The translations under genes were made by a program, and so were the position numbers. From Candidatus Nanoarchaeia archaeon (GTDB lineage Archaea; Nanobdellota; Nanobdellia; Woesearchaeales; JANQNC01), in NCBI GenBank assembly GCA_028279745.1, contig JANQNC010000001.1, forward strand, positions 1-32,000: 32,000 nt of DNA, in the 5' to 3' direction. Of the stretch, positions 2,122-27,516 are shown one piece after another. The notes below the pieces were generated by a model. The model had not been told where the DNA came from. It was given only the letters and a program-made list of their open reading frames with translations, and ran no database searches. The first letter of the stretch is position 1, and each line of letters starts with the position of its first letter.

Positions 2122-5100
2122 TCAGGTTATTATCCTGATTATGTCTGGGTTTTCAGTGTCTATAAACGTTATGGGTCTAGGCTCATCGTCGTGATCAACT
2201 ACTTTGCCGCTCTTATCGATCTCTTTCTGGTTGAATATCCATTCGATGGTTGCAAGAGGACCTCCAATCTCAACAATAAAGTAACCTGTCTGTGAATCTG
2301 AATTGTTGATATTATCATATACATAAACAGTGTAGGAGATGTTTCCTATATCTGTTGTGGTATAACTGTAGAGGTATATGTCTCCAGCTGAAAGGAAGAG
2401 ATCATAAAGAGTGTCGCTAATGTTAACTTTAACACTGTTTACTTCGATATTATCGGTGACATTTGCAGTAATGTTGATTATCTTGCCTACCACAAGAGGA
2501 TCTGGGGAGGCATCGATCCAGTTGACCGTGGGATCTGTGAAGTCTACGTTGAGGAGCCTTGAGTCGACACCGGTATTGTTTTCATAGTCGGTACACTCAA
2601 CCTTCCATAATAAGTCAACACCTTCAGTTATGTTGGTCACATTAAACATGATCTCAGTACCATCAGTTGGCGCAGCAGTATCGGAAGCTTTTAACACATC
2701 ATCAATATAGAGCTCGCAGCTTATGTTTTCATAAGCCTCGTCATAAACCTCAAACACAAAACTTACATTGCCGTCGTCATCCCAGTAATGATTGGCAGGA
2801 CTCACAAGCTTAACAGAAGGCCTTGTCAAAGTGAAAAATACGATGTTGGATGTAGCATTATTATAGCCTTCATCAGTTGCATTAACAACAAACTTGTAAG
2901 TTGTAAGATTGCCGATCAAATCAAGATGAGATGTAAGAGTGATTTCAGTTTCAATACTGCTGTTTAATGAACCCTCATTCCCTACAGAATGAAGGGTGTC
3001 ATTCACAAAATAAACATAGACGGTATAGTTTAATGTGCTGTAATCTCTAGAATTCCCAAACAGCTTAAGCTTGGGATGAACTGCAGAACCAAAAGTGCCG
3101 TTAAGAGGGGAATTGATGCTAACTGTCAAAGGTAATGCTGTGTCAATAGTGAAACTGATTGAATCCTGTCCAATCTCGCCCTCAGAATTATTTGCATAGA
3201 CAGTTAAATTGTTTAAGCCTTCGACACCTGTGATGTTTGGTTCTGAACTGCAATTAAAGGTAATATTTGAAGCACCATTAAACTCATACCAGCAACTCTC
3301 AGAAACTTCACTTGCATTAACCCTGATGAAGTGGCTTTCGTTATTATACGTAAAACTCTCAAGAGGATTTGTGATAACTACAACAGGAACGGGGATACCA
3401 ATAGTTAAATTGATAGCAGGATCGTAATAAGAAGAATAATTATCTGAGCCGTCAAGATCAATTGCGTTACACTTAATATCTACATCTGCCTGGTCAGGCA
3501 AAGCTGAAATGTTCCATGAGAAAGTAGACCCATTGGTGTGATTTCCTATAACTTTCCACTTTCTGCCATTTATATCAACCCATATAGAAGTATAGTTTAT
3601 CTCATCAATAGTTGAAGCATCAAAATAATCCATCAAACGCCCTCTTACCCTTAAGTCTTGGTTTGAAGATGATTGCCATGCACTAATGACTGAAGGGTTG
3701 GTGGTCGTAAGAGTAAAATTATGGTCAGTGTTGTCTAATGCTGTTCCTGTGTAAGTAGAAGGAAGATCAAAAGAGCCAATACTTGTCCAACCAACACCAT
3801 CATATATCTCTAGTTCAAGATCAGGATCCGAAGTTGTCTGTTGTACGGATGCTTCAGGATTGAAAGAATCAACCTCGACAGTAACTGAGATGTTAGTGAC
3901 GTGGTCAAAATTTCCATCAAGATCATTATAAGTTGTCCAAGAAGAGTCTTGGTCAGATGAAGTTGCGGTGGCAGGTGAGAATGCAGCTGCAACAAGCGCT
4001 TGCCGGTTGTTGTTTGAGTGGGACCAAGAGACAGAAAAAGAACCAGCAGTCGTGTCAATGTCATCGCCTCCTGATCCTGTAGAAGAAGTTGCAGCGCCAT
4101 CAATCTCATATCTCTCTGTGCCTGCACTGTAGGTATAATCGCCAGAATTACCATCTCCAACAGCACTCATGACCCAGCTGTTGTCTTCTGTTGTGGTAAG
4201 TGAACATGATATCGGCTGGCCGGCATTTGAGGTGCAGCTATCAACAAGGCCATCAGCCTGGTCAACATTAGCGTAAGAACTTACACCGACCAAAACATTT
4301 CTTGTGGGTGTTGCAGAAACATCAACTGCAACAGTGTAGGATCCTGAGGGGGGCAAGTCCTCTTCTAGTAAGTAGTATAATGCAGTGTATTGAGAGTAAC
4401 CTGCACCTGCTCGCGCCCAATCTGCTTGTGTTAGGGTCTGACCGTTGTAGGTTACACTGTTAACAACTTTATCGGCTAAAGAATCCTCAAAAGTGATTCC
4501 CACAACTAACAATCTATTATTTCCACCTCCTATCGTGTGAGAAAAACTTCTATCACCACTTCCTTGATCTGTTGTAGTTGCATCATGAGATATTGAACCG
4601 CCAGATCCTGTTACGGAATTACTGACATCTGTTGCATCAGTTTCTGTTGTAGAGTTAAGCAAAGAAGCGTTGATCACATAAGTGATAGTGTCTCCATCAG
4701 GGTCTGTACTTCCAGAACAGTTTAGCTCAACATCATTGAAGAAAGTATCATTACAGTTTCCATCATTGCAGGTTATAGATGTGGGTGTTGTAGGCTGAGT
4801 GTTTTCAACATATGAAACAGTCAAAGGAGCATAGTCTATTGCAAGGAATGCATCTCCGCTTCCATCTTGAGTGAAATCAACTTCATATCTGACTCTTATC
4901 CAGTTTGTTGAGTTAACATAGTTAGCTAAAGTTCCCGTTGCGTTATAACTTTCATGATACATAGCTTCATTTGAGTAAACAGGGATGTTTCCTATGTCGA
5001 CCCAGGAAGTTGTCACCCAGTCATAAACCTCGACATTCTGGTCTCCGTCAACAATCTTTTCGTGAGGGTCATCATTGTCACATAAGTCTTGAGATGCATC

Positions 5101-5940
5101 AGACTCTCCTGAGTGACAGTAATCAATCTCAAACTCAAGATTAGTTATATCAGAAGGATCTATGCTTAAAGAGCTTATATCATAATAGAGAGTGATGTAG
5201 GATAGAGCATTACCTGACCCAGAACCTTCTCCTGCAATAAAGTAATAGTTTGATCCAGGAGTTCCTGTTTGAGGACCATTATAAGTTTGTGTTTGGACAT
5301 AACTGCCTCCTTCTTCATCGTTGCCTTCAACGTCATTGATGTAACCTGCATCAGGAGTGCCTGCGGAGGGGGAGCCTTGAGCAAAACCGGGGTCGTCTGG
5401 AGTCAATATGAAAGTAAATTCTTCACCAGGTGTTAAAGGTTTTAAGAAGATCCAGTCACCAAAACAAGTCTGAGAAGAATAGTTCCAATCTTTACACTTG
5501 TATAATGTTGTGCCTTTGGCAGTAACTGTAACATTTGCGGATTCAAATTCTAATGATGTGGGATCAATTGCAAAAACATCGATGAAAGCGCCTTCAACAT
5601 TTTCTTTAGGGACATCTGAAATTCTTAACTTGATCTCAGAACTATTAACTTCTAATTTGTTAAATTCAATCTTCTCAACAGGTAAATCGTCTAATTCTAG
5701 TTCTATGTCATAAGTTCCTGGTTCAACATTTCCAATCTCGATCTTTTCAATGCTTCGTATCTTAAACTCTTCGCCTGCTGGCTCCAGATCCTCATAACTA
5801 GCAGAGCCAGCACTACTTCCCTCACTAAAGTCGTCCAGTAAAGAAGTGTCAATGTTGTCAAAGTTGATCTCTTCACTTTCAGAACAACCTACAAGAAGGA
5901 AGCACACTATTATAGCTAGTAAAAAGAAAGCATCTCTCAT
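2122..5940 (-). CDS. Large secreted/lipid-anchored surface protein (~1272 aa), sequon-rich, with repeated Ig-like beta-sandwich modules
   Basis: ORF track gives 2122..5970. I prefer ATG 5940 (MRDAFFLLAIIVCFLLVGC/SESEE), which gives a signal peptide with lipobox-like LVGC and an ATGA overlap with the upstream wHTH stop. Many N-x-S/T sequons and a DPDGD motif (GSTDPDGDTITY). The C-terminal half has recurring modules such as VSPANHYWDDDGNVSFVFEVYDEAYENISCELYIDDV...FNVTNITEGVDLLWKVECTDYENNTGVDS. No C-terminal TM. Confidence 0.85.
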   Translation of the reverse strand: MRDAFFLLAIIVCFLLVGCSESEEINFDNIDTSLLDDFSEGSSAGSASYEDLEPAGEEFKIRSIEKIEIGNVEPGTYDIELELDDLPVEKIEFNKLEVNSSEIKLRISDVPKENVEGAFIDVFAIDPTSLEFESANVTVTAKGTTLYKCKDWNYSSQTCFGDWIFLKPLTPGEEFTFILTPDDPGFAQGSPSAGTPDAGYINDVEGNDEEGGSYVQTQTYNGPQTGTPGSNYYFIAGEGSGSGNALSYITLYYDISSLSIDPSDITNLEFEIDYCHSGESDASQDLCDNDDPHEKIVDGDQNVEVYDWVTTSWVDIGNIPVYSNEAMYHESYNATGTLANYVNSTNWIRVRYEVDFTQDGSGDAFLAIDYAPLTVSYVENTQPTTPTSITCNDGNCNDTFFNDVELNCSGSTDPDGDTITYVINASLLNSTTETDATDVSNSVTGSGGSISHDATTTDQGSGDRSFSHTIGGGNNRLLVVGITFEDSLADKVVNSVTYNGQTLTQADWARAGAGYSQYTALYYLLEEDLPPSGSYTVAVDVSATPTRNVLVGVSSYANVDQADGLVDSCTSNAGQPISCSLTTTEDNSWVMSAVGDGNSGDYTYSAGTERYEIDGAATSSTGSGGDDIDTTAGSFSVSWSHSNNNRQALVAAAFSPATATSSDQDSSWTTYNDLDGNFDHVTNISVTVEVDSFNPEASVQQTTSDPDLELEIYDGVGWTSIGSFDLPSTYTGTALDNTDHNFTLTTTNPSVISAWQSSSNQDLRVRGRLMDYFDASTIDEINYTSIWVDINGRKWKVIGNHTNGSTFSWNISALPDQADVDIKCNAIDLDGSDNYSSYYDPAINLTIGIPVPVVVITNPLESFTYNNESHFIRVNASEVSESCWYEFNGASNITFNCSSEPNITGVEGLNNLTVYANNSEGEIGQDSISFTIDTALPLTVSINSPLNGTFGSAVHPKLKLFGNSRDYSTLNYTVYVYFVNDTLHSVGNEGSLNSSIETEITLTSHLDLIGNLTTYKFVVNATDEGYNNATSNIVFFTLTRPSVKLVSPANHYWDDDGNVSFVFEVYDEAYENISCELYIDDVLKASDTAAPTDGTEIMFNVTNITEGVDLLWKVECTDYENNTGVDSRLLNVDFTDPTVNWIDASPDPLVVGKIINITANVTDNIEVNSVKVNISDTLYDLFLSAGDIYLYSYTTTDIGNISYTVYVYDNINNSDSQTGYFIVEIGGPLATIEWIFNQKEIDKSGKVVDHDDEPRPITFIDTENPDIIRIIT

Positions 5941-6161
5941 CTGAAAACACCTGCTCTCCACCATATCCATGCGCCCTTGCCTGAACCAACAGGTTTACCT
6001 TTTATTAAACCTTCGCCTCTTAGGTTGTTCAATCTGTAAAGAACTTTAACTCTGGAAACATTTTTCAGTTTAGTTTCAACCTCTTTAGTCTCAAGAGGTT
6101 CTTCTGCACCAGTAAGGATGTCAATGATCTTTCTGCTAACAGCGTCGTTTATGTACATCAT
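5937..6161 (-). CDS. Small winged-helix-turn-helix DNA-binding protein (74 aa)
   Basis: MMYINDAVSRKIIDILTGAEEPLETKEVETKLKNVSRVKVLYRLNNLRGEGLIKGKPVGSGKGAWIWW fits the helix / recognition helix / beta-wing pattern of MarR/ArsR-like wHTH proteins. A TATA box ends 20 nt upstream of the ATG. The stop is coupled to the downstream giant gene. Confidence 0.7.
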   Translation of the reverse strand: MMYINDAVSRKIIDILTGAEEPLETKEVETKLKNVSRVKVLYRLNNLRGEGLIKGKPVGSGKGAWIWWRAGVFR

Positions 6162-6277: not shown

Positions 6278-6297
6278 GGTGTTACCAAAATAACACC
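6278..6297. promoter_or_regulatory. Perfect inverted repeat GGTGTTA-N6-TAACACC immediately upstream of the 6304 TATA box; candidate operator
   Basis: The 7-bp arms are exact reverse complements. The repeat sits in the divergent intergenic region next to a wHTH gene. Confidence 0.4.
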
Positions 6298-6303
6298 GAA
6301 AGC

Positions 6304-6311
6304 TTTATAAA
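6304..6311 (+). promoter_or_regulatory. TATA box (within the perfect 12-nt palindrome GCTTTATAAAGC) with purine-rich BRE-like CGAAA upstream
   Basis: CCGAAAGCTTTATAAAGC at 6296-6313, 62 nt upstream of ATG 6374. Confidence 0.55.
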
Positions 6312-6373
6312 GCTCTTTTGTTAATAAGGTTAACATTGGATTGTGGGGACTCCAATAGTAACTTGGTGTATTG

Positions 6374-6634
6374 ATGACTGACGGAGAGAATAATAAGTTG
6401 AAAGAGAAGATTTTATTTACTTTTTCTACTCAAGAGTTCCTTAAGAAAGACAAAATCAGATTCTATTACGCACTAAAAGGAAGGGATGGAAAGTCAGGAT
6501 TAGTGTCAGCTACAAAATCAGAACATCTAGGAAGCGCTGTGATCCTGGTGGATGCAAAACACGACCAAGAGTGGCAGGACTTCTTTAATTTATGGAAAAT
6601 AAAATTCACAAGAAGGAAGGTGTACGAAGAATGA
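6374..6634 (+). CDS. Small cytoplasmic hypothetical protein (86 aa), first gene of the plus-strand surface-protein operon
   Basis: ORF track gives 6371..6634 (TTG); ATG at 6374. No signal peptide. The alternating strand/helix pattern (ILFTFS / QEFLKKDKIRFYYALKG / AVILVD / QEWQDFFNLW / KIKFTRRKVY) suggests a small alpha/beta fold. The family was not recognised. Confidence 0.6.
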   Translation: MTDGENNKLKEKILFTFSTQEFLKKDKIRFYYALKGRDGKSGLVSATKSEHLGSAVILVDAKHDQEWQDFFNLWKIKFTRRKVYEE

Positions 6635-6679
6635 AACTGCAAAAATTCGAGAAAACGATCAAACTGATGGAAGTTTACT

Positions 6680-7414
6680 ATGAAGAAGATGAGGAGGAAT
6701 ATGAAAATACTGCATCATAAAATGGAACAAAAATTCAAATTCAAAATTGGAAAATTAGGCTCACTCTTCCAAAAGGAAGACCAGGTGCCCCCTGAGATTA
6801 ATTCTCAAAACGCCACCCCCAATCCAGTGGTAGAGGGGGGCACCATCCCTATCAAAAGGAGGACAAGAATGAAAAGAAATACTGCGAACCATAAAAGAGG
6901 TGGTAGATGGATAATAGCAGTAGTGATGACTTTGTTGGTGATGAATGTAGCAATGGCTTTGGAAGTCAAAACTTTTGATGAAAATTTGTTCGAGATAGAT
7001 GCATTCGAAACAGGAGATATGGTTGTGATACTGGTAGATGCGGAAACTCAACCGCTGATCACAATATCGGAATCAGAAGTAGTCGACAAAGAGATGGAGC
7101 TCATAGATGAAGGAAAGTACAGAGGAATGATACAAGTTAGTGAAGAAGGAGAATACGAAATCAAAGTTACAGAAGGAGATAATGTTGATACAACAGAGAT
7201 AGTTGTTGTGAACGACTTAGGGTTTGAATGGGAGGAAGTAGAAGCACAACTTGAAGAAGAAAAAGAAGAAAGAAAACAAATCATAGAGGAAGCAAAAAAA
7301 CAGGCAATCGAAAGATTGAGTGAAGAACAAGAAAAATCATTTTGGCAAAAGATAAGCAACTTCCTGAAAGAGATGTGGGAATGGATGTTCAAAGGAGAAA
7401 AGAATGAAGAGTAA
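6680..7414 (+). CDS. Signal-anchored or secreted small protein: beta-rich N-domain plus acidic coiled-coil C-terminus
   Basis: This is the maximal ORF. Alternative starts are ATG 6722 (directly after a micro-ORF stop) and ATG 6869 (AGGAGG at 6857-6862, 6-nt spacer), which gives MKRNTANHKRGGRWIIAVVMTLLVMNVAMA/LEVK. The hydrophobic segment ends in AxA. The C-terminus is EEVEAQLEEEKEERKQIIEEAKKQAIERLSEEQEKSFWQKISNFLKEMWEWMF. It overlaps the next gene by 11 nt. Confidence 0.7.
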   Translation: MKKMRRNMKILHHKMEQKFKFKIGKLGSLFQKEDQVPPEINSQNATPNPVVEGGTIPIKRRTRMKRNTANHKRGGRWIIAVVMTLLVMNVAMALEVKTFDENLFEIDAFETGDMVVILVDAETQPLITISESEVVDKEMELIDEGKYRGMIQVSEEGEYEIKVTEGDNVDTTEIVVVNDLGFEWEEVEAQLEEEKEERKQIIEEAKKQAIERLSEEQEKSFWQKISNFLKEMWEWMFKGEKNEE

Positions 7415-10400
7415 AACAATAGGCATAATCGGAATAATGATCTTGCTAGTTTCACTATTCGTGATAACCGCAACAGCACTAGAAGTAAAACAAGGAACAT
7501 CTGAAGATCTGACAATATTCTTACAAAACTCAAGTTCGGGAGCACCACTGACAGGAATAACCTGTGTGGCAGATGTATGGAACCCATCAAATACAAAGAT
7601 AGTGGATGATGGGGCGCTAACAGAACTAGATGAAGGATTCTACTACTATCCAACAAACGCGGGCTGGACAGACTTGGGAGATTACAGAGTTATGGTCAAA
7701 TGCACGATCTCAGGAGAGAATGTCTTTAGCGCAATGATGTTCGAGATGGTAGCAACAACAATAGAAGAATACCTAGTGGAAATAAACGAAACAACATCGC
7801 AAACTTACGATTACTTACAAAACACACTTTACCCTGCAGTTGATACTTTGGAAGCAAGTGTTGCTGATATAGATAATAACCAAACACAGATCTGGAATAA
7901 GTTGGTTACAGTCGAGTCAGATATTGCGACAAACTACAACGAAATAATGGATGCTCAGATGATGATCGGAGAGATCAACACATCCACTATGGCAGAGCTG
8001 CAAGACCACAGAAATAGATTGGTTGAGATAAACACAACAACCTGGGAGATGCTGGACAACATAACAGACACAGTAAATCCAAAACTGGACCAGTTACAGA
8101 CTGATATTGACTTGATCAAAGGATACACAGATACAATAGAAACAGAACTAAATTGTGGAGCAGTATCAGCAGGAGACGTATGTTCAAAACTTAACGACAT
8201 AATAAGTTACACCGACACAGTTGAATCAGGAATAACAAGCATACAGTCAAACATTGATGACCTTAACGCAACAGTTGACACAAGATTTGATGCAGTAGAC
8301 ACATCACTATCTAACATATACGCGGATACTCAGTCAATCCTAACCTCGGGAGTGCATCTAAGCAGTGAGGATAATGCAACACTATACAACATACTAGGAC
8401 TAGTTACGGATTCAAACACAACAATCTATGATGTCAAGAATTACATGGAAGGAACAGTAACAACATACCTAGCAGAAATCAACACAACAACACAAGAGAT
8501 AAACGCAACTGTAAATGATATCTACAACTATCTACAAAACACAGTCTATCCAGCAGTTGATACTTTGGAAGCAAGCGTTGCTGACATAGATAATAACCAA
8601 ACACAGATCTGGAATAAGTTAGTTACAGTTGAGTCAGATATTGCGACAAACTACAACGAAATAATGGATGCACAAACATTGATGACTAGTGTGAATGACA
8701 CAGTCATGACTGAATTGATAGACCATAGAAACAGACTGATAGAAATTAACACAACAACCTGGGCATCATTAATCAACATAACACTAGAGGTAGTGCCAAA
8801 GATAGATGCAGTTCAAGCAGATACTGATGACTTACAGACAGAGCTAGCACTAGTCAAGAATTATGTAGACAGTCTAGAAGATGGACAATCTGATCTGTAC
8901 AATAACTTAACAGTAATCCAAGGATACACAGACACACTAGAGACAGGGATAACCGGATTAGAAAATGACATCTCAACACTGAACAACACCGTAAGTGGAA
9001 GGTTAGATACAATTGACACTTCATTATCTGATATCTACACAGATACACAATCAGTCATTAACTCAGGAGTTAAACTAGATGCAATAACAAACGTAACACT
9101 GTATGATGTGTTATCAAAAGTAACTGATACAAATGCAACAATCGCAGAAGTCAAGACCTACTTAGAAGGACCAGTAATGACATTACTGGCTGAGATAAAC
9201 ACAACAACACACGGAACATATGACTATCTGGTTAATACTGTCTACCCAGCAATTGATACGCTAGAAACAAGCATGGCAGAAGTTCAAAACAATAACTCAC
9301 AAATCTGGACAAAAGTAGTAGAGATACAAAATAATGTGACCAATAACTTTGATGAGATATTGGCTGTGCAGAATACACTACAAGAAGTTAACACAACAGT
9401 GATGGTAGAACTAGTTGACCACAGACAAAGACTGATAGAACTGAACACAACAACTTGGGATATCTACATCAACATAACACATGAAGTAGTGCCAAAGATA
9501 GATGCAGTTCAAGCAGATACTGATGATTTACAAACAGAGTTAGCATTAGTGAAAGATTATGTTGATACATTGGAATTGGGTCAGCAGACAATAATCGGAA
9601 ACATCTCTGCAGTGCAAGTAGTTGTCGATGCAATCGATGTAAACACAACAGAACTTGAAGGACTTATATCGGGACTTGATGATATGCTTGACTGTGATGG
9701 AAGTGGAGACGGAACAGTATGTCTATACCTAGAAGCAATCAACACAACAGTTGGAATAATAGATGACAATACAGATAGTCTGGAAGCAGGACAAACAACA
9801 ATAACAAACTATGTAGATACACTTGAAGGTGGACAAACAACAATACAAAACTACGTAGACACATTAGAAGACGAACTAAACTGTGTAAGTCCGGCGGCAA
9901 GCGATGTATGTTCACAACTGAGTACAGTACAATCTTACGTGGACAGTTTAGAATCTGGCCAACAAGCTATAATCGGAAACATCACAGCAAGTGAAACAAC
10001 AATCACCTCACAACTAACAACAATAGAGAACTATGTTGACACAGTGGAAACACAGCTAGTAGGATTATCTTCAGACATAAGCGACTGGGAAGCAAATGCA
10101 ACAAGCAGATTTGATGCAATAGATGCTTCATTAACAAACGTGTATGCAGACACACAACAGATAGTCAACTCGGGAGTGAAACTAGATGCAATTACAAACG
10201 TAACTCTATATGATGTGTTATCAAAAGTAACTGACGCAAACGCAACAATAGCAGACGTAAAAACATACATGGAAGGAAGCTTGACAACACTAATCTTGGA
10301 CGTGAATGCAAGCATAACAGAAACGATAGAGTTTGAGAGTAATTTAACAAGAAACCAGATAATGGATATGATACAAAGTAATGTAACGTCTATATTGTCA

Positions 10401-13400
10401 GCAATAAGCACCAACGGAGCAGACATAAACTCAATATTGACCAAATGGGGAACATACAACGCATCAGGAATAGTAGATGAGATAACTGTAAACAGAAATG
10501 AAATAACAACAATGCAGTCATGGTTGGATGCATTTAATACAACAGAACAGGCAAGACATAATGAAAGCATGGATCTAGGACAAGAGATATTGAACTGGTT
10601 AGGAATCTACAATGGAACAGAGGCACAGAGACACAACATAACACAATCATTACTGAATGAGCTAGTTGCAAACATGACAGACTCAATCAACTTGTCAAAC
10701 GAAATAATCGCACAGTTAGGAATTAATGCGTCAGCAACAACAGTCTACGATGAACTTGTGGCATTAAGCAACCAAAATAACCAGATAATCACTTTGACAA
10801 ATGAGATCAATCTAACAACACACAACATAGACACTAACTTGATAGAGCTAAACACAACAATCTCACTGATCAAGACAGACACGACAGACTTACTAGGTAA
10901 ATGGGGCACATATAACTCATCATCAATAATGGATCAGCTAACATTGATGGACGGTAAACTAGACATAATCTCAACTTCCTCATTAAACAACACTGATGTG
11001 CTTAACGCAGTTGCACAGATGGAATCATTGCTAAATGAAACCCGAGCAGAAATCGGATTTAATGGAACAGGAATAACAGCATACGAGTACTTAGTGAATG
11101 TGGATTCATTCCTGACAGAGATGAATACAACAATAATCAACAAGATAGAATTTGAAGGAAATTTAACAAGAAACTACATCGTTGATGTGATCAACTCAAA
11201 CGTATCAACATTAATTAGCGAAATAAATTCCAATGAAGGAAAACTAGACTCGCTGTTGGCTAAGTGGGGAAGTACCAATGCAAGCTACATACTAGAAAAC
11301 ATTACAGAAAACAGAGACAAGCTGATCACGATAGAAGGATGGCTAGATGCATTTAATGTTACAGAGCAAGCAAGACATAATGAAAGCATGGATCTAGGAC
11401 AAGACATACTGAACTGGTTAGGAATCTACAATGGAACTGAAGCACAGAGACATAACCTAACACAAGGGTTACTGAATGACTTGCTTACAGAGATAGATGC
11501 AAATGAGAACTTGTCTAACATAATCATATCAAGAATCGGCTACAACGGAACTGTGCCAACAACACTGTATGAGGACATACAGACAATCATAACACAAAAT
11601 ACAGATATAACAATCCTCGTCGAAGAAATCAACATAACCTCCCACACTACATTAGAGATAGTGAATGAGACTATGGTGCCTAAATTAGATGCAATGCACA
11701 CAACAACACAAGACATACTAAGCAGATGGGACACTTACAACGCAAGCCAGTTATGGGAGAAGACAGGAGTCACAGAAACAAAAGTAGACACGATGCAGGC
11801 ATGGTTGGATTCATTCAACACATCAGAACAGACTAAGTATGGTAGTGTGATTGCAGAACTAGATGCAGTAGATGCACTAATTGGAGATGTGAGAAATGAT
11901 ATTGGGGTTAATGGATCAGGACTTTCAGTATATGATAATCTAGTTACAATTGACAATAAGATAGTTGATATGAACACAACACTGTACATCAAGATGGAAG
12001 TGGAGAGTAATTTAACAAGACAGGAACTTAAAGACATGATAAACGCGAATGTGACATCATTACTTACCGAGATAAATGAAAATGAAGGAAAACTTGACAC
12101 GCTAAGCACAGACTTAGGAAATGTATCACTAGTTTCATTGATGGCGAACGTAACAGAGGCAAGAAACCAACTAACAGGATTAGAGAATTGGCTAGATGAG
12201 TTCAATGCAACTGAACAAAACAGAACAAATGATGTGATAGACTTCCTGAACAACATAATACTGCCAGAGATAGATATGACTGAAGAATTGACAAATGACT
12301 TGATAACACAAGTAGGATTTAATGGAAGCAATGAAACACTGCTAGACAAACTTTTAGACATAAGACTTCAACAAGATTATGTTGCAAACGCAACACAGGT
12401 ATTGATCACAGTTGGAAACAACTTGACAACACTCTTGTCAGAAAACTCACAAAAGATGGACCTGCTAAAAACATCAGTGGATCTGTCAACAGTATACATC
12501 TCAGCAGTTTACACAAAATGGGGAGCATACAACATGCAAGACATATACAACAAACTTAACCTGATAGAGTTGAAAGTTGACATATTAGACTTTTCAAACA
12601 TATCAACACTGATGAACAGGTTTGACGACATAGAGCTTGCAATAAACCAAACAAGAGCAGAACTAGGATTCAATGGAACAAGCATGTCAGCATTCGAATC
12701 ACTGCTGAATTTACAGACACAGATGAATGCAGTAAATAGTTCGTTACAAGTTGCAATAGAGACACAAGGGAATCTAACAAGAACACAAATTGAAGACAAA
12801 ATCACAAATGCGACAGCGACAATAGTGAATGAAGTTAACGTGAATGAGAACCACTTGTACGACATACTAGACAAATGGGGCAACGTAACAGCAGAAGACA
12901 TAATCACAAACGTAACAGACGTAAGAAATGGCATTACAGCAATAGAAGCATGGTTGATAGCATTCAACACAACAGAACAAGACAGGCATGATAACGAAAC
13001 AGGACTAGTACAATCTGTACTGGATTGGCTAAACGTATTCGGAACAACAGAAGCAGAAAGACACGATGCGATAATGGGCAACATAACAGAAACGATAACT
13101 TTGATCAACACAACACAAGGAATAGCAAATGAGATCATAGCACAGATAGGATACAACATAACAAACAGAACTGTCTATGAGGACATACAACAATTGCTAG
13201 CAAACACCGTAAACATAACAGGCGGAACAGGAAGCATAACCGGAATCAACTATGTCATACTAGAAAACGGAACAAACATGATAGCATTACCGATGCAGCC
13301 AACAAACACCTCAATCGAATCAGTGATGGGTGTGTTGGCAGATAACTATTACAGAGTGGATTGGTACAACGACACAAGCAGTTCATGGCAGACGTACAAT

Positions 13401-13496
13401 CCACAAGATCCATTTGGAAACGACCTATACACGATGGAAACAGGAAAAGCATACAAGATATGGGTACAGGAGGACGACGTACTTTTCATAAGCTAA
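7404..13496 (+). CDS. Giant (2030 aa) secreted protein, predicted alpha-helical/coiled-coil and heavily N-glycosylated; putative fibrous surface protein
   Basis: AAGGAG sits upstream of ATG 7404. Signal peptide: MKSKTIGIIGIMILLVSLFVITATA/LEVK. The protein comprises a ~95-aa beta-rich N-domain and then ~1800 aa with heptad-like hydrophobic spacing. It is built from two families of long internal repeats. My hand count finds roughly 90 N-x-S/T sequons. An ~85-aa beta-rich C-terminal domain follows. Confidence 0.9.
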   Translation: MKSKTIGIIGIMILLVSLFVITATALEVKQGTSEDLTIFLQNSSSGAPLTGITCVADVWNPSNTKIVDDGALTELDEGFYYYPTNAGWTDLGDYRVMVKCTISGENVFSAMMFEMVATTIEEYLVEINETTSQTYDYLQNTLYPAVDTLEASVADIDNNQTQIWNKLVTVESDIATNYNEIMDAQMMIGEINTSTMAELQDHRNRLVEINTTTWEMLDNITDTVNPKLDQLQTDIDLIKGYTDTIETELNCGAVSAGDVCSKLNDIISYTDTVESGITSIQSNIDDLNATVDTRFDAVDTSLSNIYADTQSILTSGVHLSSEDNATLYNILGLVTDSNTTIYDVKNYMEGTVTTYLAEINTTTQEINATVNDIYNYLQNTVYPAVDTLEASVADIDNNQTQIWNKLVTVESDIATNYNEIMDAQTLMTSVNDTVMTELIDHRNRLIEINTTTWASLINITLEVVPKIDAVQADTDDLQTELALVKNYVDSLEDGQSDLYNNLTVIQGYTDTLETGITGLENDISTLNNTVSGRLDTIDTSLSDIYTDTQSVINSGVKLDAITNVTLYDVLSKVTDTNATIAEVKTYLEGPVMTLLAEINTTTHGTYDYLVNTVYPAIDTLETSMAEVQNNNSQIWTKVVEIQNNVTNNFDEILAVQNTLQEVNTTVMVELVDHRQRLIELNTTTWDIYINITHEVVPKIDAVQADTDDLQTELALVKDYVDTLELGQQTIIGNISAVQVVVDAIDVNTTELEGLISGLDDMLDCDGSGDGTVCLYLEAINTTVGIIDDNTDSLEAGQTTITNYVDTLEGGQTTIQNYVDTLEDELNCVSPAASDVCSQLSTVQSYVDSLESGQQAIIGNITASETTITSQLTTIENYVDTVETQLVGLSSDISDWEANATSRFDAIDASLTNVYADTQQIVNSGVKLDAITNVTLYDVLSKVTDANATIADVKTYMEGSLTTLILDVNASITETIEFESNLTRNQIMDMIQSNVTSILSAISTNGADINSILTKWGTYNASGIVDEITVNRNEITTMQSWLDAFNTTEQARHNESMDLGQEILNWLGIYNGTEAQRHNITQSLLNELVANMTDSINLSNEIIAQLGINASATTVYDELVALSNQNNQIITLTNEINLTTHNIDTNLIELNTTISLIKTDTTDLLGKWGTYNSSSIMDQLTLMDGKLDIISTSSLNNTDVLNAVAQMESLLNETRAEIGFNGTGITAYEYLVNVDSFLTEMNTTIINKIEFEGNLTRNYIVDVINSNVSTLISEINSNEGKLDSLLAKWGSTNASYILENITENRDKLITIEGWLDAFNVTEQARHNESMDLGQDILNWLGIYNGTEAQRHNLTQGLLNDLLTEIDANENLSNIIISRIGYNGTVPTTLYEDIQTIITQNTDITILVEEINITSHTTLEIVNETMVPKLDAMHTTTQDILSRWDTYNASQLWEKTGVTETKVDTMQAWLDSFNTSEQTKYGSVIAELDAVDALIGDVRNDIGVNGSGLSVYDNLVTIDNKIVDMNTTLYIKMEVESNLTRQELKDMINANVTSLLTEINENEGKLDTLSTDLGNVSLVSLMANVTEARNQLTGLENWLDEFNATEQNRTNDVIDFLNNIILPEIDMTEELTNDLITQVGFNGSNETLLDKLLDIRLQQDYVANATQVLITVGNNLTTLLSENSQKMDLLKTSVDLSTVYISAVYTKWGAYNMQDIYNKLNLIELKVDILDFSNISTLMNRFDDIELAINQTRAELGFNGTSMSAFESLLNLQTQMNAVNSSLQVAIETQGNLTRTQIEDKITNATATIVNEVNVNENHLYDILDKWGNVTAEDIITNVTDVRNGITAIEAWLIAFNTTEQDRHDNETGLVQSVLDWLNVFGTTEAERHDAIMGNITETITLINTTQGIANEIIAQIGYNITNRTVYEDIQQLLANTVNITGGTGSITGINYVILENGTNMIALPMQPTNTSIESVMGVLADNYYRVDWYNDTSSSWQTYNPQDPFGNDLYTMETGKAYKIWVQEDDVLFIS
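7836..7954 (+). repeat. 119-bp near-identical direct repeat, copy 1 (pairs with 8553..8671)
   Basis: Hand alignment gives 115/119 identical. The four differences (T/C, T/C, G/A, C/T) all fall on third codon positions and are synonymous. Both copies encode AVDTLEASVADIDNNQTQIWNKLVTVESDIATNYNEIMDA. Confidence 0.9.
8553..8671 (+). repeat. 119-bp near-identical direct repeat, copy 2 (pairs with 7836..7954)
   Basis: Same alignment as copy 1. The offset is 717 nt (239 codons), in frame. Confidence 0.9.
10320..13200 (+). repeat. Intragenic tandem repeat family B (four units of ~254-283 aa)
   Basis: The anchor motif (E/Q)(S/G)NLTR recurs at 10341, 11160, 12009 and 12771 (offsets 819, 849 and 762 nt, all in frame). 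The best-conserved block, WLDAFN(T/V)TEQARHNESMDLGQ(E/D)ILNWLGIYNGTEAQRHN, lies at 10521-10660 and 11340-11479. Hand alignment of that block gives about 124/140 nt identical. Units 3 and 4 are more diverged. Confidence 0.85.
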
Positions 13497-13497
13497 G

Positions 13498-15402
13498 ATG
13501 AATAACAAAAAACTAATCTGGATGTTTGTATTCATGGTTTTACTAGTGTCAACTGTAGCATTAGCAAAGCAACCAAATCCAGAAATCTACTGGGGAAGAG
13601 TATACCTAGATGGAAGCTATGCTCCTAACGGAGGAGTACTAACGGTAGAAACAGCATCAGGTGAGCTATTGATAAATGAAACACTGCCAAAATCAGGAGG
13701 ACATCCAGGAAGTTACAGTATAAGCGTACAGTTTGATGACTTGTTAACTAATGCAACAGATGAAGGAGCAGAGAATCTAGAACAGTTAGTCTGGAAACTA
13801 GATGGAATAGAAGTTGTAACTCCATTGAATGACACAGCAGTCATAGGGGAGACAAACAACGAGTTTAATGTAACTGCAGTAACAATACCGCAAGTGACTA
13901 TAGGGAATTTGTTCTACACCTCAATCACAGTAGGACAGGTAATAAATGACACATTATCATTGGATAATACCGGAGCAGGAGATGGAGACGTAACAATAGC
14001 ACTTAACTATAATGCAAGTGCGTATGATGTGACAACAAATCTGCCATTGACACCAACACTTTCCGCAAATAGTTCAACAAATGAAAGAATAGAAATAATA
14101 CCAAACGCATGCGGAAGTTATAACTTAAGCTTACAGACAGATGTCTTGGACACAGCAGGAAGACTAAGAACAACAAAATCACAAGACATAACATTTGATT
14201 ACACAGGACCTAATCTTGTTGTGACTAACATAGATTCAGGAACGTTGACAGTGAATGAAGTAGCACAGCTAAGCGTAAAAGTACAAAATAGTGGGAATGA
14301 AGATATAACAGGATTTAACACAAGCGTAAAGATAGATAATGTAGAGATAGGCAACACTTATGCTAACTACACTTTAACAGAGGATGAGAACTTATCAATA
14401 GGAACACTCTGGACTCCAACATCTGCAGGAACATACAACATAACTGCGGAGATAACAACAACAGAGCTAGAATGCACATCAACAGATAACATATTCAGTA
14501 AAATAGTAACAGTACAAGCAGCAACATCAGGTGGTGGAGGATCTGGTGGATCAGGAGGATCTGGTGGGGGAAGTTCATCAGGAGGAAGCTGCACACCAGA
14601 ATGGGAATGCACAGAATGGGGCGAATGCGGATACTTCAGCGGTGTAAGAACAAGAACCTGTGAAGACAAAAAAGAATGTGGTACACTGTTTAACAAACCA
14701 GAAGAAGAGGAACAGTGTAGAGGGGTTCCTGCATGCACAGATGGAATGCTAAACGGACAAGAGGAAGATATAGACTGTGGAGGATTATGTGAAGCATGCC
14801 CTATACAAACAGCAGAAGAAGAAAACAAACCAAAAACTAACCTGATTACGGGTGATGCAGTTGATCAAGAAGAGAAAGGAATGCAAAGAATACTAGACTT
14901 CCCATCACTACTGCTGGCATTTATGACATTAGTGTTCCTAATGGGATATGTGTTCATCTACAAAAATATGGACGCACAATCATATGAACAATACAGCGTA
15001 AAGATATTAGATGATCCAGGAACAAAGAAACAATATGCATATGTGCCATTTGAGTACATGATGCAGGCAGCAGACATAATAGATAACGTACATAGTTCAA
15101 AGCTGTCACAAAAAGCACTAAAAGAACAATTTGAAAAACAAAAATACAGTCCGGTTGTAGCAAGACTAGCATTGAAAGCAGTCAGATCAACAGGTGTGGT
15201 GATGAAGAATGAGGCAAGAATAAGAAAAGAACTAGCTGCTTTAGAGATAGGTAAAGAAGGATATGACTACATAAGCTATACAACATTATCAAAATCAGTA
15301 AAACTGATGGCAGAACTATTCAAAGTAATAAAAGACGATAAAGAAAGAAAAAAGATAGTGAAATTAGCTGTTGCAGGACTGGGCAGCGTAAAAACAGAAT
15401 AA
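13498..15402 (+). CDS. Type I membrane surface protein: signal peptide, beta-rich and CARDB-like domains, Gly/Ser linker, two Cys-rich modules, one TM and a ~145-aa cytoplasmic tail
   Basis: The start lies 1 nt after the giant gene's stop. Signal peptide: MNNKKLIWMFVFMVLLVSTVALA/KQ. CARDB-like segment: LVVTNIDSGTLTVNEVAQLSVKVQNSGNEDITGFNTSVKIDNVEIG...TSAGTYNITAEI. Linker: SGGGGSGGSGGSGGGSSSGGS. Cys-rich region: CTPEWECTEWGECGYFSGVRTRTCEDKKECG...C, then CTDGMLNGQEEDIDCGGLCEAC. TM: FPSLLLAFMTLVFLMGYVFIY. Confidence 0.9.
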   Translation: MNNKKLIWMFVFMVLLVSTVALAKQPNPEIYWGRVYLDGSYAPNGGVLTVETASGELLINETLPKSGGHPGSYSISVQFDDLLTNATDEGAENLEQLVWKLDGIEVVTPLNDTAVIGETNNEFNVTAVTIPQVTIGNLFYTSITVGQVINDTLSLDNTGAGDGDVTIALNYNASAYDVTTNLPLTPTLSANSSTNERIEIIPNACGSYNLSLQTDVLDTAGRLRTTKSQDITFDYTGPNLVVTNIDSGTLTVNEVAQLSVKVQNSGNEDITGFNTSVKIDNVEIGNTYANYTLTEDENLSIGTLWTPTSAGTYNITAEITTTELECTSTDNIFSKIVTVQAATSGGGGSGGSGGSGGGSSSGGSCTPEWECTEWGECGYFSGVRTRTCEDKKECGTLFNKPEEEEQCRGVPACTDGMLNGQEEDIDCGGLCEACPIQTAEEENKPKTNLITGDAVDQEEKGMQRILDFPSLLLAFMTLVFLMGYVFIYKNMDAQSYEQYSVKILDDPGTKKQYAYVPFEYMMQAADIIDNVHSSKLSQKALKEQFEKQKYSPVVARLALKAVRSTGVVMKNEARIRKELAALEIGKEGYDYISYTTLSKSVKLMAELFKVIKDDKERKKIVKLAVAGLGSVKTE

Positions 15403-15407
15403 GAAAA

Positions 15408-15415
15408 TTTATAAG
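15408..15415 (+). promoter_or_regulatory. Possible internal TATA box for the K/E-rich gene
   Basis: TTTATAAG lies 37 nt upstream of ATG 15453, the same spacing as at 21564/21609. Confidence 0.4.
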
Positions 15416-15452
15416 CAAACAGTTCCAAAAAAACAAAAAAAGAGGTAGATAG

Positions 15453-17912
15453 ATGGCAACCAGACTTAAAGCTAGGACTACAAAAACAGAAGATAAAGAG
15501 ACAAAGCAAATCTTAGCACACGCTAAAAAAAGACTAAAACAAGGGTACAGTGAAGATTCAGTAAAGATCTGGCTGAAAAGAGAAAATTATCCTACCAAAA
15601 AAATAAATTCTGCCCTCAAAGAAGTTCTAAAAGAATCAAAAACAAAAGAAAAGAAACAGAAAAGAGAATCACTTAGTCTACACAGGAAACGAGCTGAACA
15701 ACTAGTCAAACAGGAAGCTCAAAAGAAAGAAAGACAGAAGAGAGCAAAAGAATTACAGAAAAAGATCTTGGCGCAAAAAAAGAAAGATGAAAGAGAGAGG
15801 ATAAAAAGAGCAGCATCGCTTAAAAAACAAGCTGAAGAAAGAAGACAAAAAGCAGCAGAAGCTAAGAAAAAAGCAGAAAAAGAAAAAGCAATACTAGAAC
15901 TGGAGAGAAAGAAGAAAGCAGCAGAAAGAAAAAAACAAGCAGCTAAAAAGAAAAAAGAGCTAGAAGAAATAAAACAAAAAAGACTAGAAAAGCACAGATT
16001 AGTATTGGCTGAAAAAGCAGCAGAAGAAAAACTAAAACAAGGAATAGCAAGAAAAAAAGTCAAAAAAGCAAAACAGATGTGGAAAGAAGAAGAGGTAAAG
16101 AAACAACTCAAGAAAGAATCAAGAAGAAAAGCATTTGCAGCATCAATATCAAAAGAAAAAGCAGCTGAAGAAAAGAAAAAAGCAGATAAAGCGAAAAGAC
16201 TGAAAGAGTTTAAGGCCAGTAAGCAAAAAGCAGAACAAGAAAGAGCAAGAAAAGAATTAATGTTAGAGAAAAGATCCAAAGAGTTAGAGAAACAGAGACT
16301 GGTTGAAGAGAAAAAGAAAAAGCAAGAGTTATTGAAGAAAAGGAGAGAGGAGAAGAAGAGAAAAGAGCAGGAAAAGAAGAAAAAAGCAGCAGAGAAAAAG
16401 AAGTTACTGGCAGAAAAAGCAAAAAAGAAAACAGCAGAGAAAAAGAAAAAAGAGCAAGAGAGAAAAAAGAACGAAGCCGAAAAGAAAAGAGAACTTTCTA
16501 AAAGAGAAAAAGAAGAACAAGCAGCATTGAAAGAAAAGTTGTATAGGATAGAATCAGCAAGAAAGTTGTGGAAAGAGTCTGAAAAAGAGAAAACAGAACT
16601 GAAAACAAAAAGAAAACAAAAATTCTTAGAAACAAAAGCAGTTGAGGAAAAAGAAGAGAAAAAGAAACTAGCTGCTGAGAAGAGAAGAAAAGCAGCAAAG
16701 AAGAAGAGAGATGCTGAAAAGTTAGTAAAGCAAAGAGAAGAAGCAGAAAAAGCAAGAGCAGATCTAGAAAAACAAACCGCAAAAGAGAAACGGGCTAAGA
16801 AAGCAGAACAGAAAAAGATAGAAAAAGAAAGAGAACAAAGGATAGCTGAACAAGAGAAAGAAGATTTTGAAAAAGCAAAGAAAAAAGCGCAAGAGATACA
16901 AAAGAGAGACAGAGAACGAGCAAGAAGAGCTAAAAAAGCACAAAAACAAAGAGAGCAGACTATCAAAGACATCCAGGAAAGATTTACAAAAACTATGGAC
17001 TTAGTCCATAGAAGACTAAAAGCTGCAAAAGAGGAAGCAACAACCAAGAAACAGGAAAAAGCAGTAGATAAAGCACACGAAGAGATAGAGAAACTAGGAA
17101 AAGACTTTGGTAAACTAGAAGAAAAAGTAGAAGAAAAGATAGAGATCATAGAACCAGAAGAAGCTAAAGAGGAGAAGAAAAAAGAGGAAGTTGAAAAAGA
17201 GATCAAAGAAGAACCTCAAGAAACGGTAGTGGAAACAACCGCGGAGGTTGAAGATGAAAAAGAAGAACAAGAAGAACCAGAAGCAGAGTCAATAATCGAA
17301 GCAGTTGCTGACGAAAAACCAGAAGAAGAAAAAGCACCCGAAGAGATGACAAGAGAAGAAGTGCTTGATAAGAAAGAAGAACTAATCGGTCAAATAAAAT
17401 CATTCGAGAAAAAAGTAGTCAGTAGAGAAGAGAAAATAAAAGAAATCCTGAAAGATTCAGCATTAAAAGATCTAGAAAAAGAATTGGAAAAGAAACTACA
17501 AAAAATACAAAAAGGACTAAAAGAAGATATTAAAGAGATAAAAGAAGAAGTCAAAGACACTCAGAAACAATGGGTTTCTGGCGCCACTAAAGGTGGAGAA
17601 AAAGAAGAACAGAAGGAAGAATCAAAGGAAGAGAAAAAACAAGAAATTCCTGCGTCTGAAGAAAAAGAGCTGACAAAAGAAGAAAAACAGAAGGTAGTTG
17701 ATGAAGTGATGCAGAAATCAAAATCTTATTCTGAGAAAGTATGTGAGATAGTGAATAAATTTGAGTTTGTTGAATTAAGCGAGTTGGCAGACTTTATGGA
17801 TGTAGACAAAAAAACACTGCAAGAGTGGGCAGAACAAGAAGCAAAAGAAGGCAAAATAAAAATATTCAACGTCAAGAATGGAACTTACGAACTAAGAAAA
17901 AATCCAAACTAA
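15453..17912 (+). CDS. 819-aa Lys/Glu-rich protein (putative very long charged single alpha-helix) with small structured N- and C-terminal domains
   Basis: TTTATAAG (15408-15415) and GAGGT lie upstream. N-terminus: KKRLKQGYSEDSVKIWLKRENYPTKKINSALKEVL. About 600 aa of K/E/A/R low complexity follow. The C-terminus, VCEIVNKFEFVELSELADFMDVDKKTLQEWAEQEAKEGKIKIFNVKNGTYELRK, looks like a winged helix. No TM or signal peptide. Confidence 0.85.
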   Translation: MATRLKARTTKTEDKETKQILAHAKKRLKQGYSEDSVKIWLKRENYPTKKINSALKEVLKESKTKEKKQKRESLSLHRKRAEQLVKQEAQKKERQKRAKELQKKILAQKKKDERERIKRAASLKKQAEERRQKAAEAKKKAEKEKAILELERKKKAAERKKQAAKKKKELEEIKQKRLEKHRLVLAEKAAEEKLKQGIARKKVKKAKQMWKEEEVKKQLKKESRRKAFAASISKEKAAEEKKKADKAKRLKEFKASKQKAEQERARKELMLEKRSKELEKQRLVEEKKKKQELLKKRREEKKRKEQEKKKKAAEKKKLLAEKAKKKTAEKKKKEQERKKNEAEKKRELSKREKEEQAALKEKLYRIESARKLWKESEKEKTELKTKRKQKFLETKAVEEKEEKKKLAAEKRRKAAKKKRDAEKLVKQREEAEKARADLEKQTAKEKRAKKAEQKKIEKEREQRIAEQEKEDFEKAKKKAQEIQKRDRERARRAKKAQKQREQTIKDIQERFTKTMDLVHRRLKAAKEEATTKKQEKAVDKAHEEIEKLGKDFGKLEEKVEEKIEIIEPEEAKEEKKKEEVEKEIKEEPQETVVETTAEVEDEKEEQEEPEAESIIEAVADEKPEEEKAPEEMTREEVLDKKEELIGQIKSFEKKVVSREEKIKEILKDSALKDLEKELEKKLQKIQKGLKEDIKEIKEEVKDTQKQWVSGATKGGEKEEQKEESKEEKKQEIPASEEKELTKEEKQKVVDEVMQKSKSYSEKVCEIVNKFEFVELSELADFMDVDKKTLQEWAEQEAKEGKIKIFNVKNGTYELRKNPN

Positions 17913-20280: not shown

Positions 20281-20299
20281 CAATAAGGCAATACAAAAC

Positions 20300-20308: not shown

Positions 20309-20330
20309 ACAAAATTCTAGAATAAAACTA

Positions 20331-20900: not shown

Positions 20901-20912
20901 AGGTTAGTAAAA

Positions 20913-27513: not shown

Positions 27514-27516
27514 AAC

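Follow-up and report, generated by a model that had tools for sequence, protein, structure and literature searches.

A conserved gene pair for a predicted giant surface fibre and its candidate membrane anchor in a narrow Woesearchaeota clade, with SepF-tipped anchors in sister lineages

We analysed a stretch of 32,000 nucleotides (nt) from Candidatus Nanoarchaeia archaeon (assembly GCA_028279745.1, contig JANQNC010000001.1, positions 1 to 32,000; hereafter the window), which carries a row of plus-strand open reading frames (ORFs) that we call, in order, A87, B, C2030, D634 and E819. As judged from sequence, the conserved core of this cluster is a pair of genes confined to a narrow clade of Woesearchaeota (DPANN): C, encoding a giant secreted protein (C2030 in the window), and D, encoding a type I membrane protein that is the candidate for its anchor (D634 in the window), several orthologues of which end in a SepF domain. 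We put at about even the chances that the pair forms an envelope cassette, in which a giant fibre would be held by D and the tail of D would link it to cytoplasmic partners. What was computed here is gene order and its conservation, domain content, enrichment in glycosylation sequons, a helical-rod prediction and the presence of SepF in orthologues; from these we infer that C docks on D, how the fibre is oligomerised, that FtsZ is bound and whatever role E819 may have. To our knowledge, DPANN envelopes, division and partner attachment are almost uncharacterised, and the cassette offers, for this group, a tangible set of conserved genes that could encode a surface fibre together with its anchor.

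The source of the DNA had been taken, in an earlier reading of the letters alone (the original prediction), to be a putatively episymbiotic archaeon. That it is a DPANN archaeon is supported by the convergent radical-SAM gene of the window, which shares 57–64% identity with genes in many metagenome-assembled genomes of Woesearchaeota and Nanoarchaeota. The five ORFs of the original prediction were reproduced exactly, together with their spacings: an 11-nt overlap between B and C2030, a 1-nt gap between C2030 and D634 and a 50-nt gap between D634 and E819.

The giant and D genes lie side by side in every locus in which either was recovered (the window, L001/L002, L003/L086, L004, L005, L085, L087, L092, L093 and L094), so that the check on gene order in related genomes which the original prediction had proposed came out in its favour for this pair in all of about ten lineages. 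On contigs L087, L092, L093 and L094 the gene upstream of D is represented by its 3′ end alone; in L092, L093 and L094 this fragment encodes the C-terminal domain of the giant, in L087 the fragment, which was not compared, is an ORF that ends at the start of D, and D itself is truncated in some lineages. The junction between the two genes is mostly a 4-nt overlap or a 1-nt gap across lineages in which identity of the giant ranges from 63% (L001, the closest relative of the window) to 31%. Flanking genes are less widely kept: A87 occurs in four lineages and a B gene precedes the giant in five, and in L003 and L004 the order on one strand is A87, a large surface protein with a Big_7 domain, B, giant, D.

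In L003, L005, L087 and L076 the next gene after D is the radical-SAM gene. We rejected it as a member of the cluster: of 79 Woesearchaeota loci retrieved around its orthologues, 78 are without the cassette, and a D gene was found in only one. Pairing of giant and D is therefore not a matter of general synteny, and the cassette is a clade-specific insertion. It is highly improbable that the genes form no functional unit and are simply neighbouring surface-protein genes, kept together through recent common ancestry. Such an account would fit a window full of secreted proteins, a probable promoter of its own in front of E819 and the inversion, without apparent harm, of the upstream surface-protein gene F1282, but adjacency of C and D persists down to about 30% identity while the flanks (L093, L094 and L003 compared with the window) and the order of the F gene change, start and stop codons overlap, and the presence of a membrane segment in giants is complementary to the presence of a D partner.

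The product of the first gene of the pair had been described as a secreted, sequon-saturated protein of 2,030 amino acids (aa), predicted to be helical, and each part of this description held: C2030 has a signal peptide, 94 N-x-S/T sequons against 38.4 ± 5.3 expected from 2,000 shuffles (z = 10.4) and a helical model from AlphaFold2 (AF2). Among the secreted proteins of the window that were checked, only C2030, F1282 and D634 are enriched in sequons. The sole hydrophobic segment of C2030 is N-terminal (residues 1–30), with no transmembrane segment (TM) or other membrane anchor elsewhere; in place of a C-terminal TM there is a soluble beta domain ending ...KIWVQEDDVLFIS. Between its end domains run two families of helical repeats (Table 1), visible in both protein and DNA. 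Prolines number 18 in 2,030 residues, and C-x8-C loops occur in the type-1 repeats at residues 251/260, 764/773 and 827/836.

Structure prediction of the repeat units, also suggested in the original prediction, was run on one type-1 repeat, the input being 23 aligned repeats drawn from 14 proteins. The model has a helix of about 200 residues, unbroken from residue 2 to 203 and followed by a second helix over 210–238, with a predicted local distance difference test score (pLDDT) of 89 and a predicted template modelling score of 0.41, the low value of the latter being expected of an extended chain. C2030 is thus predicted by the model to be an extended, very long helical rod and is most plausibly an oligomeric coiled coil, although analysis of its sequence found no heptad or hendecad phase running along the rod. 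Fully extended, 1,800 helical residues would measure about 250–270 nm, which is an upper bound. Searches of PDB sequences gave no match to C2030 at E ≤ 0.1 and none to a profile of its C-terminal domain, and a Foldseek search of the PDB with the repeat model returned generic helices only, all at E ≥ 0.39.

Residues 143–185 and 382–424 of C2030 (YPAVDTLEASVADIDNNQTQIWNKLVTVESDIATNYNEIMDAQ, 43 residues) are identical in protein and 89% identical in DNA over 161 nt, against 65–81% identity among the remaining repeats, which indicates recent duplication or gene conversion within the fibre gene. Relatives of the giant number 14 among 5.8 billion protein clusters; across lineages its length ranges from 1404 to 2259 aa, with a varying number of repeats. 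The orthologous giants P0001–P0006 (63–31% identity over full or near-full length) all lack a TM and all have the C-terminal beta domain. Conservation is greater in the end domains (47–85% identity) than in the rod (31–63%), and is greatest in the N-terminal domain (51–85%); the N-domain of D, too, is better conserved than the rod.

In the more distant giants P0007–P0014, whose type-1 repeats share 24–34% identity with those of C2030, the C-terminal domain of C2030 is missing and the C-terminus has a TM of its own. As giants without a TM are paired with D and the distant giants have a TM of their own, the anchorless form goes with a separate membrane protein. A fusion of the Rosetta-stone kind, joining the extracellular part of D to the C-termini of distant giants, was sought and rejected, the two having no BLAST similarity.

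D634 was confirmed as the type I membrane protein of the original prediction, with CARDB domain, Cys-rich module, TM and cytoplasmic tail, preceded by an N-terminal signal peptide (Table 1). Searches against PDB sequences gave matches to the CARDB domain and linker only. In a search of 1.84 billion representative proteins with a profile built from D634 and the two relatives nearest to it, 25 matches fell below 1e-30; about 22 of the matches listed are true members of the family, with the PNPExYWG...DEGA...W N-domain, CARDB, one TM and a cytoplasmic tail, and a CARDB match was obtained in 19 of the 25. Patterns from the N-terminus of D had no relatives in 185,579 species genomes, a set to which the window's own genome does not belong.

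The tails of D proteins are modular, and most contain a domain of about 100 aa with the pattern hPYEYL...[DE]YxYh. That of D634 is homologous to the domain preceding SepF in sister lineages (hhalign probability 85%, E 6e-6). One subgroup ends in a motif of the form ...KISSKKDIIDKLKEVYE / ...IQKSIKISSKKDIIDKLKEVYE / ...NKQxxLNQLKEVYK, found in the D tails P0024, P0027, P0028, P0031 and P0032 and also in the giants P0012 and P0013, which have several TMs; this suggests a common cytoplasmic binding partner for the two groups. In two otherwise unrelated giant surface proteins, P0064 (2954 aa) and P0105 (2646 aa), the C-terminal 400 aa or so include a G-rich linker, a Cys-rich module (CxPxWxCxxWxxC...) and a TM resembling those of D634, followed by three tandem cytoplasmic repeats of about 50 aa (GHGFTxExhKxxLxxKGW). 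The D tail gave no significant match to these repeats.

SepF domains (PF04472, cut-off 27 bits) were detected at the cytoplasmic end of the D orthologues in L087 (47.6 bits), L005 (39.3 bits) and L076 (31.1 bits), with scores just below the cut-off in L003 (26.1 bits) and in P0029 (24.5 bits) and a weak SepF-like end in P0040 (E 0.11). In at least four sister lineages (L087, L005, L076 and L003) the domain comes after the tail domain, and in P0029 it directly follows a linker. A profile of the SepF-bearing tails, compared with known structures, matched the SepF-like protein of Pyrococcus furiosus (3ZIG) at E 4e-7 and SepF of Bacillus subtilis (3ZIH/3ZII) at E about 5e-4. These domains are probably an FtsZ-linked divisome module, as predicted from their homology. 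Archaeal SepF is the membrane tether of FtsZ and is described as small and fully cytoplasmic, with an N-terminal amphipathic helix (PMC8178401). The D orthologues with a SepF core would likewise tether from the cytoplasmic side, but in them it forms the tip of a type I membrane protein of about 830 aa, some 540 of them extracellular. To find SepF, the main FtsZ tether known in archaea, fused to a protein that crosses the membrane and is largely extracellular is unexpected, and it makes the coupling of the archaeal division ring to the envelope outside the membrane directly testable. Neither D634 nor its isolated tail gave a SepF match even at E ≤ 5, and E819 gave none either.

A further pointer of this kind comes from the distant giant P0014 (2186 aa, with type-1 repeats and several TMs), the C-terminal 80 aa or so of which match the PRC barrel at 32.7 bits (cut-off 21.2); CdpB and CdvA, which act in archaeal division, have this fold. 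CdpB1, a PRC-barrel protein, binds SepF in Haloferax (bioRxiv 10.1101/2023.03.28.534520). The SepF link, for its part, would point to coupling of envelope and division at least as much as to interaction with a host.

Taken together, these results would fit an assembly in which C is exported by the Sec route, heavily N-glycosylated and forms an oligomeric coiled-coil fibre with a small beta domain at each end. The C-terminal beta domain of the fibre may dock on the extracellular N-domain of D, which would hold the fibre on the cell, and the tail of D would connect the whole to partners in the cytoplasm. For sister lineages the partner would probably be FtsZ, reached through the SepF end, so that the fibre or envelope layer could be placed by, or coordinated with, the division ring; in the lineage of the window E819, adjacent and probably separately promoted, may be the cytoplasmic partner in SepF's stead. 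B, the 1282-aa lipobox protein F1282 and A87 would be accessory members. We favour a fibre with an anchor because C and D are adjacent everywhere they were recovered, even where the flanks have changed; because anchorless giants go with D and giants with a TM of their own lack the C-terminal docking domain; because the two putative contact domains are the most conserved parts of their proteins; and because the cytoplasmic end of D is an exchangeable adaptor, in several lineages a recognised divisome module. Of the parts list of the original prediction, the fibre (as the AF2 rod) and the membrane anchor (as one half of the conserved C–D pair) are supported; it was partly wrong on the cytoplasmic rod, on B, which is probably not signal-anchored, and on the boundaries.

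A more specific form, in which a glycosylated coiled-coil fibre and its bitopic anchor together make a trans-envelope assembly that plugs into the FtsZ divisome (through a fused SepF domain in sister lineages, a PRC barrel in a distant giant and possibly E819 in the lineage of the window), is one we offer tentatively and regard as rather doubtful. If true, SepF would here be seen to span the membrane for the first time, and archaea would have a counterpart to the 'outside-in' coupling of envelope and division of the MapZ type; alternatively, a host-contact fibre could be positioned by the division cytoskeleton. MapZ of Streptococcus is bitopic, binding the wall with its extracellular domain and FtsZ with its cytoplasmic one, and the SepF-tipped D orthologues would follow the same logic. 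The likeness is one of analogy only: there is no homology, and the partner of D would be a protein fibre, not peptidoglycan. If the link is only structural, what is left is still a new family of very long glycoprotein fibres, present on DPANN chromosomes and extrachromosomal elements.

Several observations weigh against a cassette of this kind. D634 itself lacks SepF, so the division link is one of family homology and not of this protein; SepF-like ends occur in only about five or six of some 22 representatives of the family, the other tails having different motifs; and PRC barrels have many roles. The relation of E819 to D is one of adjacency in three related lineages only, and L093, which also lacks SepF, has an unrelated gene downstream in place of E819. 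C and D are 244 nt apart in L094. With no heptad phase along the whole rod, C2030 might fold back into bundles instead of forming one long coiled coil, and the AF2 model of D634, built on an alignment of three sequences, was too poor for a fold search (pLDDT 47.8). Binding of C to D, oligomerisation and surface location are themselves inferred, from the letters of the genes.

The same features could belong to a host-attachment fibre, as the original prediction had it, in which the giant would be an adhesin or tether to a host cell, D its anchor and the cytoplasmic parts mere stabilisers. We consider this possible but on the unlikely side. The organism is a DPANN archaeon and the giant is predicted to be a long extended rod with distal beta domains, fast-evolving repeats and conserved ends; repeat number and length vary (1404 to 2259 aa) as they do in adhesins, and lectin-like or MG2 head domains (Laminin_G_3; MG2, PF01835) are found in distant homologues. 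However, nothing in the sequences points to a host ligand, the symbiotic lifestyle of the clade is presumed, and conservation of the giant peaks in its N-terminal domain, which is presumably the distal one, whereas receptor-binding tips typically evolve fast. The SepF and PRC-barrel tails of relatives point instead to the cell's own division apparatus.

The arrangement also recalls a two-component S-layer, in which the giant would be the canopy or stalk and D the anchor, with SepF tails directing insertion at mid-cell; we judge this unlikely. SlaA and SlaB of Sulfolobales are likewise encoded by adjacent co-oriented genes for a large anchorless N-glycosylated protein and a single-pass membrane protein with extracellular beta domains, and an anchor gene next to that of an anchorless glycoprotein, an extreme density of sequons and the lack of any other recognised S-layer candidate in the window all speak in favour of such a layer. 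Tetrabrachion, from Staphylothermus marinus, is a 70-nm glycosylated coiled-coil stalk with its own C-terminal TM, and C2030 is predicted to be a very long N-glycosylated alpha-helical stalk protein too. Yet neither C2030 nor D634 has sequence similarity to SlaA or SlaB (PDB, Pfam, NCBIfam) and the roles of the folds are reversed, the large protein being helical here and the anchor all-beta, where SlaB carries the coiled coil; D has, in addition, a structured cytoplasmic tail, SepF-tipped in relatives, and a very narrow distribution. C2030 differs from tetrabrachion in having no C-terminal TM, repeats of 238 and 273 aa and beta domains at both ends, and it gave no match to the tetrabrachion fragments in the PDB. 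More generally, a helical rod of 1,800 residues is unlike the beta-rich proteins that form lattices, none of the solved S-layer proteins was matched in sequence, and an essential layer protein would be expected throughout the clade, whereas this family is narrow (14 giants in 5.8 billion clusters, 25 D matches below 1e-30 in 1.84 billion proteins and, with the N-terminal patterns of D, none in 185,579 species genomes).

The original prediction had recognised no characterised pilus, archaellum, S-layer or secretion system in any of the components, and sequence searches of Pfam, NCBIfam and the PDB bear this out. No ORF of the window has a Pfam or NCBIfam match to a PilB/FlaI ATPase or a PilC/FlaJ platform protein, and the signal peptides of the cassette are of the ordinary Sec type with A-x-A sites, not of class III (prepilin). 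C2030 lacks the PGF motif, TM and basic tail of archaeosortase/PGF-CTERM glycoproteins. The CARDB domain of D634 is bona fide, but CARDB is a generic Ig (immunoglobulin)-like adhesion module, found in cell-surface proteins of archaea and bacteria, and does not define a system. D634 is thus a CARDB protein, with SepF membership for its orthologues only; the pair does not belong to the SlaA/SlaB, tetrabrachion or MapZ families, since sequence comparison gave no support for membership and defining traits, among them a TM by which the giant anchors itself, are missing. What appears to be new is a predicted membrane-spanning SepF fusion in the same family as a candidate surface-fibre anchor.

Two of the distant type-1-repeat homologues, P0009 (2328 aa; gene at 8001–14987 of L088/L089) and P0010 (2491 aa; gene at 8001–15476 of L090/L091), are encoded on contigs of about 57–77 kb. 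On L088/L089 there are genes for PolB, ERCC4, RHH and a primase-like protein together with dozens of tiny ORFs, while L090/L091 have small ORFs and additional giant ones; a protein of about 300–400 aa with a conserved C-terminus (...NFLxFIxNPE...PLP...) is common to both types; L088–L091 are likely to be extrachromosomal elements or viruses of DPANN archaea. The fibre module of the window might then be mobile-element or viral cargo, derived from or exchanged with such elements and serving cell–cell contact for transfer or superinfection exclusion. The presence of type-1 repeats in proteins of 2,300–2,500 aa on these PolB, primase-like, ERCC4 and RHH contigs, with strong matches (E about 1e-77), is what such an origin would predict, but we think it very improbable: the window contains no integrase, replication or capsid genes, its neighbouring genes are ordinary chromosomal ones and its base composition is even throughout, scans of IMG/VR with the giant and with P0009 found no relatives, and the giants on the elements have their own TM and neither the C-terminal domain nor a D partner.

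Table 1. Features of the gene cluster and its surroundings in the window (positions in nt from the first letter of the window; residues are those of the named protein).
Feature	Residues	Position	Strand	Description
F1282		2122–5970	−	1282-aa surface protein; probable true start M11 at 5940
74-aa winged-helix-like gene		5937–6161	−	Directly upstream of F1282, overlaps its annotated start; divergent from A87
Promoter-like stretch, 46 nt		6283–6328	+	Palindromic AAAGCTTTATAAAGC (TATA/B recognition element-like), about 65 nt upstream of A87
A87 ORF		6371/6374–6634	+	87 aa
B ORF		6680–7414	+	244 aa as long ORF
B from M64	181 aa	6869–7414	+	Signal peptide AMA/LEVK (cleavage at the slash), beta domain of about 95 aa, acidic helix, C-terminal amphipathic SFWQKhxxFhKNhW helix
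C2030		7404–13496	+	2030 aa
C2030 signal peptide	1–27		+	Hydrophobic segment
C2030 N-terminal beta domain	27–118	7482–7757	+	
C2030 type-1 helical repeats	119–960	7758–10283	+	About 238 aa each, about 3.5 copies
C2030 type-2 helical repeats	961–1940	10284–13223	+	About 257–285 aa each (about 273), about 3.5 copies
C2030 C-terminal beta domain	1945–2030	13236–13493	+	
D634		13498–15402	+	634 aa
D634 conserved N-domain	25–130	13570–13887	+	PNPEIYWG...DEGA...W
D634 Ig-like domain and CARDB (PF07705)	238–321 (CARDB)	14209–14460 (CARDB)	+	CARDB 31.6 bits, cut-off 22.7
D634 G/S linker and Cys-rich module	342–425	14521–14772	+	10 Cys
D634 TM	464–490	14887–14967	+	
D634 cytoplasmic tail	144 aa	14968–15399	+	YVPFEY...YDYISY tail domain, then conserved terminal helix VKLMAEL...IVKLAVAGL
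E819		15453–17912	+	819 aa
E819 'GYS' helical domain	about 17–60			
E819 K/R/E/A region	65–500			Net basic
E819 acidic region	550–650			
E819 C-terminal region	750–819			Winged-helix-like

E819 had been counted as the last gene of the operon, but it was found only in the three SepF-less lineages closest to or including the window and appears to be a lineage-specific neighbour outside the conserved core, probably transcribed separately. Its homologues follow D in the window, L001 and L094 (the D protein of L094 being 49% identical to D634), all of which have the short tail without SepF; four lineages without SepF could be read downstream of D, and these are three of them. E819 is absent from the SepF-bearing loci. 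Ahead of the gene lie a TATA-like TTTATAA and an AGAGGT Shine-Dalgarno sequence (15408–15452, plus strand), in a layout repeated in L094, which probably give it a promoter and transcription of its own; in L001 a hairpin and T-run resembling a terminator precede the homologue. The SepF-less D634 with E819 next to it makes a natural comparison to the SepF-tipped anchors.

The composition of E819 (32% K+R, 24% D+E) and the absence of a hydrophobic segment agree with the cytoplasmic K/E-rich protein of the original prediction, whose winged-helix end found only sub-threshold helix-turn-helix (HTH) matches at the C-terminus (eWH_GTF3C1, E 0.035; HTH_17, E 0.042) and no match in the PDB. It is not charge-balanced: residues 65–500 contain about 40% K+R and about 20% D+E, some 2:1 in favour of basic residues, where an ER/K single-alpha-helix rod would have E and K/R alternating in roughly equal amounts. 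It is a composition that would fit binding to nucleic acid and a long cytoplasmic rod equally well. A homology search with its two terminal domains joined gave no match outside the lineages of the window, L001 and L094. We considered whether E819 carries a hidden SepF or is the split-off end of an ancestral D and rejected this, there being no similarity to the SepF-bearing tails. Its N-terminal domain gave a weak in-register match to the GHGFT...KGW repeats of P0064 and P0105 (E 0.0012, probability 19%), which we treat as a lead only. In L001 (18775–21900) the homologue is about 200 aa longer than E819 and is split over three frames in A-rich tracts, into pieces of 236, 782 and 59 aa; either the assembly went wrong in homopolymers or the gene is decaying or phase-variable.

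On its left side the cluster reaches further than had been proposed. The original prediction was right that it is a real conserved unit, but drew its boundaries wrongly, with E819 inside and with two minus-strand genes outside, for the 74-aa winged-helix-like protein and the 1282-aa surface protein F1282; by the gene order of L003 and L004, the divergently transcribed F1282 belongs to it. F1282 begins with a hydrophobic segment closed by a lipobox-like LLVGC, has a Big_7 Ig domain close to the C-terminus and contains 41 sequons against 20.4 expected. Its homologues in L003 (2579 aa) and L004 (1285 aa) lie between A87 and B on the same strand, and F1282 and the 74-aa gene have evidently been inverted in the lineage of the window and L001. 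The 74-aa gene occupies the same place in L001/L002; its product, which has a match to an FaeA-like winged HTH below the cut-off (E 0.009), is a candidate local regulator.

The promoter-like stretch upstream of A87 is identical to positions 8876–8921 of L001 (compared by eye) and is far more conserved than the flanking genes. A87, a small cytoplasmic protein encoded by the first plus-strand gene of the cluster, has an invariant RFYYALKGRDGxSG motif and is the best-conserved protein of the cluster, with 85% identity in L001, 80% in L004 and 37% in L003; it had no match in Pfam or NCBIfam, nor in the PDB, which was searched with a profile of A87.

B, called signal-anchored in the original prediction, probably starts at M64 (6869) and would then be secreted, with a cleavable signal peptide. 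GGAGG stands 6 nt upstream of the ATG at 6869. Residues 28–56 of the long ORF are 69% identical over 29 aa (E 4e-11) to residues 1136–1164 of the F protein of L004, the start of its extracellular Big_7 Ig domain; the long extension is also present in L001, and B orthologues in the more distant lineages L003, L004 and L085 have short N-termini. For these reasons the long N-terminus of B is probably not translated, and 6680–6868 is probably a remnant of Big_7 coding sequence, a scar of the rearrangement that inverted F1282. B genes stand directly upstream of the giant in L001, L003, L004, L005 and L085, and the C-terminal amphipathic helix of their products is conserved; we predict that B is an accessory secreted subunit. 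We also asked whether B and the N-terminal domain of the giant are paralogues and rejected this, at an hhalign probability of 1.9%.

Elsewhere in the window, scans with Rfam and for tRNAs found no rRNA or tRNA genes. Further secreted and membrane proteins are encoded in a row downstream of the radical-SAM gene (19435–29526): a Laminin_G_3 protein (281 aa), a Big_9-like protein (348 aa) and orphans of 942, 255, 327 and 669 aa. Five proteins checked in this region showed no enrichment in sequons, the 942-aa protein having 0 against 5 expected. Just to the left of F1282 (63–2120) are genes for a HAMP-domain membrane protein of 399 aa and a KaiC-like/DUF7504 ATPase of 210 aa.

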